Shown: positions 13,145 to 53,039, counted from the first letter of the stretch. The stretch: 64,000 bases of DNA from Eledone cirrhosa (GCA_964016885.1 OZ024741.1:120342001-120406000); one strand, 5' to 3'. The notes: generated by a model not told the origin, from the sequence alone. Translations and numbers: made by a program.

Positions 13145-13818
13145 AATGTTGAATCATCGTGGATTGTGTGATGGACATGTAGTCTATAAATTGCGTTTCC
13201 TGGATTGTGTAAGTGGTGGTGTGTGCGAGGACAGTGGAGCTGTTTTGCTTCTCATTTGTAATATTTTTGATATTTTTGATATTTTTGGTGTTTCTCTACA
13301 CACGGGCTTCTATATCGTACAGGTGTGTGTGAAAAATGCTTTAACAATACAGCCCCCATGATGCTATTGATTGCCTGCTTTAACTGCTTGTTTTACATGT
13401 AACAATCTGCCGCACTATAATCTTGTATAAATAGGACACGCGTGCATGCCACGCGTGAGACTGTTACATACACTGGCTACTCTAAACTTTCCTCTTGCTT
13501 TATCTTCATAAACTGCCAATGTTTTATTTTTATTTTTATTTTTATTTTAATTTTAATTTTAATTTTAACTTTAATTTTGTCCTTTAATATGACTGTAATC
13601 TTTGTATGTAAATTGCCATGCTATATTATTATGATGGATGTCAACCCACTGTGGGTCAATATATACATATGTTTCTATATGTCTCTTGTGTTGAAAAGGA
13701 GGTCAAGTATGTAAAAAATCACTAAATAATTGCTCCGAAGAATCCAAACCTCGGTTTGGAGGAAACAATTGTAAGCAAATAAATGATTTAAACTGAACTT
13801 TGATTCATGTAATTTCTA
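13145..13818 (+). mobile_element. PLE 3-prime end/pLTR copy, A-to-G hypermutated in its 5-prime part
   Basis: Homologous to the reverse complement of ~38115-38670. Contains an HHR and ends in (TA)n. Confidence 0.75.
13730..13778 (+). ncRNA. Hammerhead-like motif, U4C core, palindromic stem III
   Basis: ttgct-CCGAAGA-a-tccaaacc tc ggtttgga-g-GAAAC aatt GTA-agcaa. Copies at 38158-38206 (-) and 38807-38855 (+). Confidence 0.7.
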
Positions 13819-15195
13819 TATATATATATATATATATATATATATTGTATATATATATATATATATATATATATATATATAGAGAGAGAGAGAGAGAGAG
13901 AGAGAGAGAGAGAGAGAGAGAGAGAGAGAGAGAGAGAGAGAGAGAGAGAGAGAGAGAGAGAGAGAGAAATATACACGGGTGTGTATGATTGTGTATAGAA
14001 GATTATATTAATAAAAGGAATTCCAACTTTGTCTGATTTACTCGTTTTATTTACAATCCTTTAAAATTTATAATGGTATTAGAATGAAATAGTGTGGTAG
14101 AATATTAAATGTTAAGTGTCAATTGAACAAGTACTTTCATGCTTTCGCAATCTTCAGGTTCATATTCTGTGGTGACAGTCAAGTTTGCAATTTTCGAGTT
14201 ATATATATCTACACTGTATATATATATATATATATATATATATATATATACAGTATATATATACAGTGCATATATATATATATATGTGTGTGTGTGTCTG
14301 TGTGTCTGTGTGTCTGTGTGTCTGTGTGTCTGTGTGTGTGTGTGTGTGCGTGTGTGTAAGTATATGTATATATAGATACTTTGTATATATATAATATATA
14401 ATATATATATATAGTACATATATAATATATATATTATTACTATATATATATATATATATATATATATATATGAACAAGTAGGACCCCGACGGCTGAGCTC
14501 AAGCCGTTTCGACGGCTAATTCTGGACTAAATAAAAAATTTTATCCCGGTAAATGAATAGCCGAACTTCTCAGGGGGTCATTCCATATATGGTAAAAGTG
14601 ATTGTCACAAGGATTGGTCAAAAGTTTGTTGTTGCATGTTCCATTGTCCTGTGTCCCCCCACCATTTGGTCTGTTTACCTGTTTTTTCTCTTTCTTCCTC
14701 TATCCTCACTACTTTTCCCTTTTTTTCTTTTTTTTTCGTTTTCTTTCCCTCCTGGCCTTTTTATCGATAAAAGGCCTTGGGCGCGCCGCTGATCACTCTT
14801 TGATATCCTGTATTAAGCGCCGAAACATCTATGATCTCGGTTTACAGCTGATGAAGGATTTATTCTCTTGTTTCGTCCATATTATCATCTTAAACTTTGT
14901 TTACTGTAACAACACAGCTCGTTTCGTTTCTTATAAATTTGTATTTACCGCTGTGACCCCCTCTACCTGTTTTTCTCGAAAAAACACAAACTCTCCATCT
15001 CAATTCTACTTTTGAAAGGCATAAGAACTGTGAAACCGGTAAAGGAACCAAATAAATATTCTTAAAAAGACTCCAGTTACATTTTCGATTTCATTTTTTT
15101 CCTTATATATATATATATATATATATATATATATATATATATATATATATATTAATTCAAAATATTAACAAAATAGATATTCTTGTGATCAAGTA

Positions 15196-15262
15196 TATTT
15201 TATTATACATATTTCAGAGGTACTGAGTTAAGTTCAACAGTACGTCCTCATCAGATAAAATA
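15196..15262 (-). ncRNA. Minimal type I hammerhead ribozyme
   Basis: tattttat-CTGATGA-ggacgtactg...cagtacctct-GAAATA tg TATA-ataaaata, with an 8-bp stem I. Confidence 0.75.
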
Positions 15263-16707
15263 AGATGATACTGACATACCCTGACATAGTAGATGGTTAA
15301 GATTCAGTCATGGTCGTGAGTAATATATGACAAAACTCAATATTTATACCTTAATATTGAGAACATGAGAAAAATATATAATACATACAATAGTGCGTGT
15401 AATACAGCTTAAAAAATACATGGCATCAATATAACAGTTTAAAAAATGTAAACTACTGAAGAAAGAGGAAACAAAGGAAAGCATAGAGGAAGAAACAGCT
15501 GATGGGATAATATAGTTAGTAGGTGCCTCGAAAGACAAATGAGAGAGGATTAAAGAGAGAGAGAAACAAAGGGGAATAATTTATGTTCAAGTTTATAGAT
15601 AATTATCCATATATGCAATATATATCTAAACCTATTTGGTTGACCGTTAATATTAAAAATATTTAATTTAAGTTAGTTCAGAGTAATGAGTAATATTTTA
15701 GGTTTTAAAAGTTAATAGGTATCTGTATTAATATTATATTATACTATCAAGTTTAATTTCTAAAATTCAAATTTTATGAAATCAAATTTAAAGGATTTAC
15801 GAAACACGAGAAAGAAATTATATAATGTTTTTTATAACCTCAAGAAGGTAATCTTTACCAAAATTATTTATAATATTGACAACAGTTTATATAATATAAT
15901 TTATAAAATAATTATAGTTATAATTATTAAAGAATTTATGATTAACAGTTTGAGTGCCTAAAGGATCAACAGGCCTTATAATTAAACTTAAAGAAGTCTG
16001 AATTTTCAAATTATATATATGTGTTAATCAAAAAATACACAAGGATTATAATGTCTAAAGACTTAAGGTGATACCTTTCAAATATATATAACATAATACA
16101 ATAATACAATATAGTAAATAAGTTACTGAAAATATTGTTAAAAAAATATTGTTAAAAATTAATATTTTATATCAATTATTGTAAAATGTTCATTTAGTTG
16201 ATATATACTATAAATATATAAGTCAAAACTACATGAGTCTTAAGGATAAGGGCTAGATACAAAATAAATATAAAAATAAAATATAAAAAGTGAAAAATAA
16301 TGAATTGTTTGCGAAACTTAAAAATGCCCAATATTAAAAATATAGTATAAAATGTAATAGGGTTTTAATATATAGTAGACAAAAGATACTTCTAAAATAT
16401 CCAGCGAATATGATAGAAAGAGGAGCTAAATACTTGAAAAAACCGAAGGTAATCTAAATTTAATTAAAATAAATTAAATGAAATTATATTAAATTAAGTA
16501 ATAATCATTATATTATTTCGAACATCCAGGGAATATCTAACACTTATAACAATAGAGAGTCATTTGAGTATCTAAATTATTTATAAATGCAACTACGAGT
16601 ATGTTATTACACTAGATAAACATATTTGTACAACTATATAGAGAGAGTATTATAGGTATTAATGAAACGATATACATTTAATAAATAAATAATTATAATC
16701 CTTTTTA

Positions 16708-51006: not shown

Positions 51007-52523
51007 GGAGCCCCGAGCATGCTCCTAGCTGCTGATACGGTCATACCCTCGGCTACTGGGGTCCAACAGGGCGACCCTTTGGGACCCCTCCTGTTCGCCC
51101 TTGGTATTGACCACATCGTCCGGAGTATCACGGCCCTTCTCAACGTTTGGTATCTGGATGATGCTACGTTGGGCGGTCTGCCATGACCTTCAATCGGTGG
51201 TTCCTGCCCTGGTGGGAATCGGCTTCCAGGTCAACTCTGCCAAGTCGGAGGTGGTGAACGTCAGCCTCGATGCTGCGAGCTTTGCAGCCTCCATTCTCCG
51301 CCAGGTTCAGGTGACCCCAAAGAGGATGTCCTCATCCTCGGGTCACCGATCCACCCGCCGACCATCCATTCCACCATCATGTCCAGGCTTCAACAGATCC
51401 AGACTCTCACGAGCCGACTGGGCTTCTTTGACGGCCACCCAGCTCTCTTTCTGCTGAGGAACTGCTTCGCCATGCCGAAGCTCCTCTATACACTCCGCAG
51501 CGCTCCATGCTACACCCAGACATCTCTCCTCGCTGACCTCGATACTTGTATCCGAGCAGCAGCCGTGGGGATATGCAACGTCATGTTTTACCACATAGGG
51601 TGGCAACAGGCCACTTTACCTGTCAGGTATGGCGGCCTTGGCCTCCCGTCCCCGATCTCACTAGCTTTGCCGGCGTATCTTTCGTCGGTAACCTCGTGCC
51701 GCGTCCTCGTCAGCAAGGTTCTTCAAAACACAACAGAACCCTCTGTGTTCAGAGAACGTGAGGCCGCCTGTGAGACGTGAGACCGGCTGGGACTTAGCCC
51801 AGTAGACGTCCCTCCTCCTTCTCCCCCTGTTGACGTCAAGTCCCCCCAACGCACTTGGAATGCCATCCAGTGCAGCTTGGCCTCAGACAGGCTCACGCAC
51901 CAACTCGACCAGCACCGCCTTGCTTGTTTTCGTGCGGCCTCCAAACCCCACAGTGGTGCCTGGCTCCATGCCCTGCCCTCCTTCTCCACTGGCACGCAGT
52001 TAGACAAGCATAGCCTGCGAATCGGCGTTTCCCTGAGGCTCGGCCTCCGGATCTGCCAGCCACACCAATGTCGCTGCGGTTCCACCGTGGACTCTTTCGG
52101 CCTCCACCCGCTTTTCTGTCTCCACAGTGCCGGCCGCATTCCACGCCATGCTTCCCTCAACGAGGTCATTAAACATGGCTTGGACGCTGCAGGCTTCCCT
52201 TCCCAGCTCGAGCCAGTGGGGCTGGATCGAGGGGACGGCAAAAGGCCAGATGGCATGACCATCTTCCCGTTCCGCGGTGGCAAACCCCTCGTCTGGGATG
52301 CCACTTGCACCAACACTTTCTGCAGCCGCAACCTGGTGCAGTCTGCGACTGACCCAGGTTCTTCTGCACGTCGGGCTGATGGGGCCAAACTCCTCAAATA
52401 CCGGTCGTTCTACGACAGCTTTGCGGTCGTACCCCTGGCAGTGGAGACTTCTGGTGTCCTCGGCCCCAGGGCTACCTCCTTACTCACCACTATAGACGCT
52501 GAGCTGGCCATATGATACATATG
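51007..52523 (+). mobile_element. CRE-clade non-LTR retrotransposon fragment (RT + Zn knuckle + restriction-like endonuclease)
   Basis: GVQQGDPLGPLLFAL, WYLDD, LPVRYGGLGL, CRCG...H...C, RH..LN and GKRPDG...LVWDATC; 11-bp TSD taatgacgtat. Confidence 0.88.
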
Positions 52524-52907
52524 TAATGACGTATTATCTTCGTTTTTTTTCGTTCATTGCCAGAGAACGTCTCCATGAACCACCTAATATAATATTAGTC
52601 TACGACTTCATTTATACCATAAACGTGGTTTTGTCTTTGCGTGTAATTGTTTTCAACGCTCCAATTAATGACGTATTATCTTCGTTTTTATCCGTTCTTT
52701 ACCAGGGAACGTTTCCACGAACCAAAGTATCGTCTTCCTGTCTTCCTTTGGTTGCAACATTTTTTGAAATATTTACTTCTGCATTCACAGATTGATTTTT
52801 TTAGTTTCAGAAGATCCCGTTAAGGGTGAAAGCAGCGATTCTTTGCTTAAACTTTAATCTGTTATTTTAATAAATATATATATATATATATATATATATA
52901 TATATAT

Positions 52908-53039
52908 ATATTTAATATAGAAATGGCTTCTACAGGACTAGAAATGTTTCATTCGGGAGAAATCATCAGGAAGCTTTCTGATGATTTCTCCCGAGTGAAA
53001 CAGTTCTAGTCCTGTAGAAGCCATTTCTATATTAAATAT
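52908..53039. ncRNA. Palindrome encoding two back-to-back complete hammerheads (52926-52974 -, 52973-53021 +)
   Basis: gctt(c/t)-CTGATGA-tttctcccga(a/g)t-GAAAC-a.ttctagtcct-GTA-gaagc on both strands. Confidence 0.75.

Follow-up and report, generated by a model that had tools for sequence, protein, structure and literature searches.

The canonical EN+ Penelope-like elements (PLEs) are characterized by 5' truncation, partial tandems, an adjacent inverted 5'-truncated copy, a tail at one end and a hammerhead in the pLTR, and TA targets have been described for the Naiads; the available text of these papers describes no edited copies (PMC8557442, PMC11167929). The traces of editing that have been described come from other elements or from RNA. 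In exogenous retroviruses in culture, about half of the adenosines in U3 or in an inverted repeat are converted to G, a change recorded after reverse transcription. In cultured human cells, L1 generates ADAR-edited pseudogene insertions (3 of 235), so that edited RNA enters chromosomes, at low frequency, through the RT of a retrotransposon; according to the available text, this applies to somatic cell lines and host mRNAs, with edits limited to inverted Alus (PMC11702581). At the RNA level, hyper-editing has been reported for Penelope in a lizard and for repeats in octopus, with upstream G depletion as a shared ADAR motif and A preferred as the 3' neighbour in invertebrates; genomic fixation is not reported in the accessible part of this study (PMC5625713). 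Finally, APOBEC "DNA-edited" LTR retroelements of vertebrates carry G>A changes derived from cDNA deamination, and the portion of that work available to us uses invertebrates as a negative control (PMC4866542).

In a window of 64,000 nucleotides from Eledone cirrhosa (the whole stretch of DNA analyzed here, GCA_964016885.1 OZ024741.1:120342001-120406000) and in related copies elsewhere in the genome, we detected PLE sequences with bursts of A>G changes on one strand which, judging from sequence comparison, are likely to be ADAR edits of the sense RNA that were probably copied into heritable DNA by the PLE RT. As in the lizard Penelope, the apparent ADAR substrate is PLE RNA and G is depleted upstream of the edited site; as in the APOBEC case, strand-specific clustered transitions are fixed in copies and become visible by within-family comparison. 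Unlike the latter, the changes are A>G, in PLEs of an invertebrate, with no sign of restriction; unlike the exogenous retroviruses, the carrier is an endogenous, chromosomal TPRT-type retroelement, and the edits are inherited by a multiplying subfamily; and unlike the L1-made insertions, the substrate would be the element's own RNA, the copies are heritable and the tracts do not match the usual inverted arm. In the mainly open-access literature covered, neither genomic fixation of ADAR-edited PLE copies nor a subfamily descending from an edited founder is reported; what the present analysis adds is a founder lineage, in a Penelope-type family, that was edited in two steps. The features of the window are collected in Table 1.

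Table 1. PLE-related features of the window (positions counted from its first letter)
Feature	Coordinates	Strand	Basis or details
Frameshifted PLE with GIY-YIG and direct repeat, unrelated to families A-C	8022..12927	-	PF01541 at 8438-8815
5'-truncated 3' UTR copy of Penelope-like subfamily A, TA repeat end, ordinary member	12918..13822	+	identity to 29 copies
Inherited A>G tract common to all of subfamily A, two bursts (approximate span)	13100..13470	+	A vs B comparison
Broken PLE RT/EN remnant, related but different family	17402..18896	-	60% protein, 67% DNA identity to family C
Short inverted repeat, likely paired PLE 3' ends	23023..23129	.	43 paired, 2 G.T, 2 C.T; no editing polarity
Short inverted repeat	37631..37821	.	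76 paired, 2 G.T, 4 A.C; no editing polarity
Main arm, subfamily B copy (A-state sister of A)	38114..38669	-	99.5% to B majority
Inverted arm (38668-38899) and 3' tail (to 39081) of the same insertion, unedited	38668..39081	+	pairing
5'-truncated Penelope-like family C copy, sense-strand hyper-edited	39991..42055	-	comparison with family majority
Hammerhead-like core (CTGATGA..GAAA), 3' end of family C copy	40040..40097	-	motif scans
Inverted PLE tail extension at 5' junction of edited copy, unedited	42052..42158	+	0 A>G / 41 A
Short inverted repeat	42251..42425	.	83 paired, 0 G.T, 0 A.C; no editing polarity
Inverted repeat	48571..48828	.	103 paired, 4 G.T, 6 A.C; no editing polarity
Short inverted repeat with hammerhead-like core (49537)	49494..49598	.	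35 paired, 4 G.T, 3 A.C; no polarity
Inverted repeat, hammerhead-like core in each arm (52969, 52978)	52903..53044	.	65 paired, 2 G.T; no polarity

The family C element encodes a single ORF of 750 aa (intact in the copy L150) with an RT as well as a GIY-YIG domain at the C terminus; its nearest Atlas clusters carry PF26215, PF01541 and PF00078, and Pfam and PDB searches with this ORF gave no meaningful direct match. Ahead of the EN lies a cysteine motif, a feature that the available text of PMC8557442 reports for Neptune and Nematis. For families A and B, only the EN end of the ORF was observed. The insertions show pLTR tandems, an inverted 5'-truncated copy and a tail at one end, as indicated by 94 head-to-head pairs of family C, the tails at 42052-42158 and 38900-39081 and an upstream direct repeat in long copies. 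They thus share truncation, tandems, inverted copy and tail with the canonical EN+ PLEs, from the published descriptions of which, so far as these are accessible, they differ in having edited copies; the inverted arms and tails are known PLE insertion anatomy rather than a special fold-back system. Families A-C are truncated copies of ORF-bearing elements and do not belong to the non-LTR retrozymes, which the available text of 10.64898/2026.07.22.740005 defines as small tandem repeats that are non-coding and have a type I hammerhead in each unit. Hammerhead-like cores are present, with a CCGAAGA variant in A/B. The initial annotation had counted about 20 of them in the window, but a loose CTGANGA..GAAAY scan yields 10 (mean 1.6, maximum 5 in shuffles), a stem-checked scan yields four, and Rfam searches of the window under gathering and E-value thresholds identified no hammerhead family. 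The 108 weak Rfam matches are miRNA/snoRNA-type models on hairpins and microsatellites.

The PLE ORF remnants in the window, assumed earlier to be sources, are not the sources of the edited stretches: the nearest one shows only ~60% protein and 67% DNA identity to family C, and the frameshifted element with the direct repeat (8022-8842 equals 12109-12927 at 98.7%) has no similarity to the family C ORF in a BLASTP comparison. The parts that the initial annotation joined into one system do not form one locus; their proximity reflects how dense in PLE debris the genome is.

The family C copy at 39991-42055 comprises the C-terminal GIY-YIG region and ~1.5 kb of 3' UTR, with a TA repeat at the end. 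Compared with the family majority, its sense strand carries A>G changes at 185 of 574 A sites, next to 1 G>A, 0 T>C, 1 C>T and 6 transversions. The majority state is ancestral because the YVG of the GIY-YIG frame is kept there, whereas the window copy reads CVG. Editing is dense over ~1.5 kb from the 5' end and patchy in the last 500 nt (93/196 in the EN-coding segment, 82/272 in the proximal UTR, 9/98 in the terminal 500 nt), and results in 56 nonsynonymous codon changes and 0 stops. The hyper-edited stretch originally proposed at 40040-42072 is therefore a true hypermutated sequence, and it is present in the raw data: contigs of three short-read runs (X1, X2 and X3; 400, 423 and 339 letters), all from one sample that is possibly the assembly's own source, match it with 0 mismatching letters and span its 5' junction. 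The unedited tail at this junction is 98% identical to family C positions 4478-4584. Being 5'-truncated, the copy is dead regardless of the edits.

Five edited family C copies were found, including the window copy, the other four with 130-247 A>G each, along with three further edited copies in sister subfamilies. Four of the five were recovered through similarity to the window copy or with EN-region probes, which gives a biased view of tract location; among 100 family C places sampled without this bias, one is edited and 99 are not, and overall ~98-99% of the copies are unedited and ~1-2% edited. Pooled over the five copies, the edited fraction depends on the 5' neighbour (T 0.47, A 0.38, C 0.24, G 0.14), with 50/370 edited after G versus 368/785 after T (p = 2e-23); as the 3' neighbour in family C copies, G (0.45) exceeds A (0.39), contrary to the A preference reported for invertebrate hyper-editing (PMC5625713), which counts against the ADAR reading. 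Clustered A>G changes on one strand with all other changes at background level, and depletion of G 5' of the edited A (in the family C copies and in the family A tract described below), are features of ADAR hyper-editing. In ORF-containing edited copies, 56-83 nonsynonymous changes accumulated in each.

The site sets of the five copies differ. The window copy, L176 and L177 have 51 triple sites versus 30 in stratified shuffles, which might indicate a common edited ancestor, but the unrelated L179, from another subfamily, has G at 39/51 sites common to these three copies versus 66/172 elsewhere; edit-site sharing is thus a site preference, because a copy of another subfamily tracks the same sites. 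The tracts have sharp edges inside one continuous copy (0/129 A edited before position 2383 in L177); the start at 2383 is common to two edited copies of different subfamilies, and 5' truncations cluster at 2346-2354. Judged by eye, an antisense poly(A)-like signal at the edges of the tracts was set aside, since such signals are too frequent in AT-rich DNA. In the inverted arms that belong to edited insertions, A>G and T>C changes are both absent (0/75, 0/150, 0/41). An all-versus-all scan of 0.93 Mb of loci gave further A>G or T>C signals, of which the nine inspected pairs are TA/TG microsatellite artefacts. The crude T>C flag on the L111 arm (8 changes over 1.9 kb, accompanied by 4 G>A and 10 transversions) was not counted, and L196 is a probe match without an alignable long arm.

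Families A and B present a different situation. The copy at 13.2 kb had been taken for an individually edited retrocopy (13190-13455), but over the searched part its identity with 29 other genomic copies is 95-98%, without A>G excess, and relative to the majority sequence of its own subfamily the differences are 2 A>G and 7 G>A. The A>G bias is a fixed subfamily trait, not an individual edit. The proposal that the 13.2 kb and 38.1-38.9 kb sequences belong to one family holds, with 27 G-for-A and 1 A-for-G at 13195-13460 relative to the 38 kb subfamily, but what distinguishes the former is subfamily-wide. The edited stretches at 13.2 kb and 40-42 kb do not belong to one family either, given that the A/B and C majorities match different places in the window. 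In longer subfamily A copies, the end of the GIY-YIG ORF lies upstream. A 440-nt tract of subfamily A carries 40 A>G among 157 A versus 5 G>A, compared to 8 A>G among 201 A and 16 G>A in the flanks (Fisher p = 3e-9), and edited sites are never preceded by G (0/13, p = 0.02). Once A/G-polymorphic columns are masked, the tree places old B copies at its base, followed by B' and then A (supports 0.965 and 0.986). The first stem, internal B' branches included, accumulated 15 A>G versus 4 other changes in the tract and 1 A>G in the flanks, a burst resting on only 2-3 B' copies; the second accumulated 18 A>G versus 6 other changes in the tract and 1 A>G in the flanks. No A>G excess is seen within A or within B. 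Thus, subfamily A inherited two 3' UTR A>G bursts on successive stems and then kept multiplying: 15 of the 30 sampled A/B copies (12 of subfamily A and 3 intermediates) carry one or both bursts. A local hairpin was considered as the cause of the tract, but its fold contains no long stem.

With respect to the mechanism, we propose that the sense RNA of the element would pair with a long antisense strand, ADAR would convert A to I on the paired sense RNA, leaving a one-strand A>G burst, and the reverse transcriptase of the element would copy the edited RNA into heritable DNA. The part of the initial annotation that invoked ADAR-type editing of PLE RNA followed by reverse transcription is backed by strand, spectrum, context, independence and raw data. 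For the source of the duplex, we lean slightly toward rare copies that have long arms or are transcribed in the opposite direction and supply long antisense RNA, over the short inverted arm that is common. An internal inverted repeat is absent from family C, and no source locus with an antisense arm and alleles matching an edited copy was found among 49 sub-lineage places.

In one form of the chain originally envisaged, read-through of head-to-head fold-backs would yield hairpin RNA that is edited by ADAR and reverse transcribed, 3'-terminal edits being absent because they would block priming and let only internal edits survive. We consider this route unlikely, albeit the strongest of the alternatives. 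Fold-backs are abundant (64 of the first 100 family C 3' ends are in head-to-head pairs by hand count), the arms of L305, cut at 2353 and 988, would place the start of a stem 30 nt from the 2383 tract edge, and the massive hyper-editing of Penelope RNA in the lizard and the inverted-Alu observations, as far as these sources are available, are compatible with it (PMC5625713, PMC11702581). However, of the 94 junction pairs, 73 would include position 4300 in the stem and no more than 6 extend below 2500. Edits in the terminal 500 nt nonetheless number 0/100, 0/100, 0/102, 9/98 and 22/100 in the five copies, and a two-site 3' probe detected editing in 1 of 412 family 3' ends in fold-backs. Terminal edits are tolerated, because two copies carry them, and the clean inverted arms likewise count against this chain. 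The diagnostic allele of L305 differs from that of L176, L177 and the window copy, so this locus was rejected as the source. All the inverted repeats listed earlier are indeed present in the window, but G.T polarity was found in 0 of the 8 hairpins examined there. The 13.2 kb tract corresponds to the loop of the 38 kb fold-back rather than to its arms: 38114-38345 pairs with the inverted arm (228 paired, 1 G.T, 2 A.C, 1 T.T), whereas 38346-38667, with most of the tract homologue, is unpaired; the 3' tail of this insertion (38900-39081) is common to 24 of 29 loci. The tracts have sharp edges, but neither a source among the 49 sub-lineage places nor the common inverted arms match them.

It is improbable that editing is an effective APOBEC3-like restriction of PLEs by the host, with the genomic copies as the few escapers. 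The nonsynonymous load of the edited ORF-containing copies is in line with this possibility. If restriction took place ahead of insertion, with inosine-containing RNA being kept in the nucleus or degraded, it would leave few traces. Nevertheless, neither sense-strand G>A from cDNA deamination nor a population of dead-end copies with curbed amplification was found: nearly all family C copies are unedited, the window copy would be dead anyway, and edited founders expanded to about half of the A/B copies, so the restriction role assigned by the initial annotation is not supported. In addition, human ADAR1 curbs L1 without editing, according to the available text of PMC5224506. The predicted enrichment of A>G copies in PLEs relative to LINEs is no more than suggestive: none of 5003 LINE 3' ends is edited, and no copy was flagged when spectra were taken one by one for 136 SINE-like matches, 20 young LINE matches and 14 RTE-like ones. 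A screen of the window together with a random 600 kb covered 440 repeat segments (181 kb) that have three or more partners; it is blind to whole-subfamily edits and does not cleanly separate repeat classes, and it flagged only the window's own copy. No family of DNA transposons was recognized in the DNA sampled.

The possibility that the A/B asymmetry reflects ordinary subfamily drift, or G>A loss in B, is largely refuted, and we regard it as doubtful. Indels and transversions also separate A from B, and the outgroup is only 72% identical and AT-rich; the 440-nt tract has 17 transversions versus 15 in 640 nt of flanks and may evolve fast for other reasons. Against drift, the asymmetry is limited to the tract, the changes fall on two stems only, they are not of the CpG type (5/27 after C), and the A state is found in the basal old B copies and in this distant outgroup (of the 40 sites, 27 have A and 5 have G).

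It is very improbable that the bursts stem from a DNA-level process or an error-prone RT (biased misincorporation or deamination in an RNA:DNA hybrid). The failure to find a duplex partner among the 49 places would be compatible with it, and ADAR action on RNA:DNA hybrids is discussed in the accessible part of PMC12925331, but the changes are on the RNA-sense strand (had the cDNA strand been edited, they would appear as T>C), the order of 5' neighbours is that of ADAR, and neither the sharp edges within a continuous copy nor the clean inverted arm of the same insertion would be expected. An assembly or sequencing artefact can be dismissed, considering that short-read contigs of three runs are identical to the edited stretch through its junction and that eight different copies each have a different edit set.

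Under the ADAR editing model, ORF-located edits would likely yield dead single copies, whereas 3' UTR edits would have been tolerated twice, with the net effect that the element would now and then be mutated heritably, which does not amount to a restriction system. We tentatively suggest that ADAR acted as a heritable mutator of an active retroelement lineage, with two 3' UTR hyper-editing events fixed in founders under purifying selection on the protein (8 synonymous and 4 nonsynonymous differences in 168 EN codons between A and B), the descendants of which make up about half of the family; editing may even have aided the spread, perhaps by melting a silencing duplex. RNA edits are normally transient, and here they appear as fixed DNA; with the edited state ancestral to roughly half the copies of one family, A-to-I editing would feed genome evolution via a transposon. 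The tracts would mark the strand and the segment of PLE RNA that was double-stranded and copied, so that the poorly understood insertion mechanism of PLEs and their antisense partners become testable from DNA alone. The negative results matter as well, in that the common inverted arms are not an evident substrate and the copy counts are unlike those of restriction. Rather than merely silencing the element, editing likely remodelled it as it spread.

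The 40-42 kb stretch, which the initial annotation read as hyper-edited, was compared, like every other part of the system proposed there, with copies across the 3.0 Gb genome. A query of 41220-42080 matched 39 other places with 83-88% identity, and relative to the majority state of 30 loci, the copy carries 185 A>G changes at 574 A sites versus 1 G>A, 0 T>C, 1 C>T and 6 transversions. This family of Penelope-like elements (PLEs), denoted C, encodes a 750-aa ORF (intact in the genomic locus L150) whose closest Atlas clusters carry GIY-YIG, RVT_1 and HTH_animal. It resembles the PLEs described in excerpts of PMC8557442 and PMC11167929 in its partial tandems, inverted 5'-truncated arms and tail. 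Because the A state retains the endonuclease YVG, which reads CVG in the window copy, A is ancestral. Contigs of three runs from one sample (possibly the assembled one) reproduce the edited stretch with 0 other letters and cross its junction, which excludes an assembly error. The reading of this stretch as hyper-edited thus holds, and heritable ADAR-type editing of the copy is very probably real.

Four further edited copies, with 130-247 A>G each, were detected among 29 other fetched family C loci. Pooled within the tracts, the edited share varies with the 5' neighbour (T, 368/785; A, 337/889; C, 85/358; G, 50/370; p 2e-23) and with the 3' neighbour (G, 0.45; A, 0.39; C, 0.35; T, 0.28). Depletion of upstream G is the motif common to ADARs according to the excerpted text of PMC5625713; the 3' A preference that it gives for editing in invertebrates fits less well with the order G > A in family C. 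Sites common to several edited copies reflect site preference rather than descent. Nonsynonymous changes number 56-83 per edited copy, with 0 new stops.

An edit-blind pattern identified 271 family C places genome-wide; among the first 100 in genome order, all of which were examined, the window copy is the sole edited one. Two probes containing fixed G letters matched 8 and 6 places, namely the five copies already described, three edited copies belonging to sister subfamilies (107/510, 107/919 and 112/1261 A>G, counts raised in part by differences between subfamilies) and one further hit without assignment. The single edited copy in 100 unbiased places, together with these probes, therefore puts the edited fraction at about 1-2% of family C copies, with the match to the 271-place pattern established for the window copy alone of the five. 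The edited copies at loci L176 and L177 share two non-editing alleles that none of the other 47 places in their sub-lineage has; their source is accordingly either missing from the assembly or lost. Excerpts of earlier papers describe A-to-G hypermutation recorded through reverse transcription in avian retroviruses (PMC12925331) and, in cultured cells, in 3 of 235 insertions generated by L1 (PMC11702581), as well as hyper-edited Penelope RNA in a lizard (PMC5625713); a literature search covering few subscription journals found no report of PLE copies that carry edits as fixed genomic sequence.

For the 13.2 kb stretch, likewise annotated as hyper-edited, the A>G bias is real but had been assigned to the wrong level, being subfamily-wide: the copy is 95-98% identical to 29 other fetched loci without A>G excess and is thus not individually edited. 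The proposed family link to the 38 kb copy stands insofar as each is the 3' end of a PLE in which a GIY-YIG ORF end occurs, but they belong to different subfamilies, A and B, respectively, and the 38 kb copy is also ordinary for its own. Within 13195-13460, sites with G in the A majority and A in the B majority outnumber the reverse 27:1, compared with 6:6 further 3'. An edit-blind pattern found 342 A/B places, the first 30 of which comprise 15 of B type, 12 of A type and 3 intermediates (B'). In a tree of 75 copies, constructed with all A/G-polymorphic columns masked, without duplicate arms and copies covering <600 nt, and rooted with an outgroup at 72%, old B copies are basal, followed by B' and then A (supports 0.965 and 0.986). 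Relative to the old-B state, a tract of 440 nt in A contains 40 A>G (157 A sites) against 5 G>A, compared with 8/201 A>G in the flanks (p 3e-9), and 0 of 13 tract adenosines 3' of G are changed. Of the 40 sites, 27 are A in the outgroup and 5 are G; 16 of 21 B' changes are common to A (5 expected). Parsimony assigns 15 A>G versus 4 other changes (flanks, 1) to the stem of A+B' including internal B' branches, and 18 versus 6 (flanks, 1) to the stem of A, with no A>G excess within the A or B clade. Across 168 codons, the endonuclease (EN) of A and B differs by 8 synonymous and 4 nonsynonymous changes. The founders of A would have undergone two bursts of editing in the 3' UTR, with transposition continuing afterwards, a two-step history that we consider likely.

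The initial annotation sought the dsRNA source of the editing in fold-back insertions or antisense transcription, and the inverted repeats that it listed are all present. A fold-back source would agree with the tract start at family C position 2383 in both L177 and L179 (edited copies), with the clustering of 5' truncations at 2346-2354 and with the arms of another locus, L305, which are cut at 2353 and 988; however, the L305 alleles mismatch the edited copies, and none of eight inverted repeats tested is polarised. The arms that pair in the 38 kb insertion correspond to its 3'-terminal 232 nt (state in A, 3 A>G versus 7 G>A), and its loop contains the homologue of the tract of family A. The inverted arms of edited insertions contain no A>G or T>C on either strand. 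Family C 3' ends form head-to-head pairs in 64 of the first 100 places (hand count). Position 4300 would be paired in 73 of 94 junction pairs, a set with some near-duplicates and breaks in alignment, and the pairing would extend below 2500 in 6. The edits show the opposite distribution, affecting 37-93 of approximately 195 A in the EN-coding part of the five copies compared to 0, 0, 0, 9 and 22 of approximately 100 A in the terminal 500 nt; a two-site 3' probe, with a sensitivity that we estimate at perhaps 10-25% per edited copy, matched the window copy alone among 412. Short fold-backs accordingly appear a doubtful source. A long antisense partner would instead be required, pairing in cis (rare long arms) or in trans. 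A second cluster of 5' truncations lies at 2050-2100, and the one at 2346-2354 is located just 3' of a C13 run.

The annotation further joined these parts into one system, with the PLE RT/GIY-YIG frames of the window as sources and about 20 hammerhead motifs. The PLE remnants in the window come from families other than those of the edited stretches, hammerhead cores number 10 in a loose scan (1.6 by chance) and 4 in a stem-checked scan, with none in an Rfam search of the window, and we found no evidence joining the parts as a single locus.

Coordinates of the edited copies and of other features (window positions unless a locus is named)
Position	Strand	Feature	Observation
39991-42055	-	family C copy	edited
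L179:2128-5996		near full-length family C copy	247 A>G; 748-aa ORF still open; RT region without edits, extensive recoding in linker and EN
L202:4093-6695		internally inverted family C insertion (2058-3458 reversed vs 3433-4492), resembling twin priming by L1	unedited copy most closely related to the window copy (0.5% over 609 nt, non-A sites); could provide antisense to an internal segment only
13735-13775; homologues near 38180-38210, 38810-38840		A/B hammerhead-like motif	CCGAAGA replaces CUGANGA in both subfamily majorities
680-970; 39165-39416; 52610-52888		high-copy repeat	degenerate hammerhead-like end
1263-4500	-	broken PLE-like RT and EN frames	very C-rich, in sharp contrast with AT-rich surroundings
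23760-25709; 30758-32710	+; -	two intact single-exon 650-aa 7tm_2 GPCR ORFs	cysteine-rich N-termini; facing each other; DNA 72-74% alike; 500-900 nt inverted repeat, 6 kb apart
51029-52515	+	GC-rich frames, presumably of the RT + restriction-like endonuclease type	no match in Pfam search; between duplicated pieces (50916-51006, 52586-52676) of a hammerhead-bearing repeat
55777-58545		2.8-kb (CA/CTCA)n tract	almost without G; GGT-rich tracts on flanks

With respect to class specificity, a young LINE (full-length ORF in locus L276 with RVT_1 and an APE-type endonuclease match) has 0 of 5003 places with three fixed G letters; approximately 10 would be predicted for an edited share of 2%, so that the upper bound lies near 0.6%. 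This count agrees with the predicted enrichment of edited copies in PLEs over LINEs, which is suggestive only because the probe sits at the 3' end, a region rarely edited in family C as well. No further edited copy was detected among 440 repeat segments in the window together with 600 kb sampled at even spacing across the genome. The high-copy repeat at 680-970 shows, summed over 63 hits versus the majority, 93 T>C and 8 A>G, possibly a subfamily-level bias too.

Human ADAR1 restricts L1 without editing, according to excerpts of PMC5224506. The proposal that editing restricts PLEs, as a counterpart of APOBEC restriction, appears highly improbable: judged against the excerpted text of PMC4866542, the analogy fails in chemistry and also in outcome, because 98-99% of family C is unedited and the edited founders of A/B expanded.
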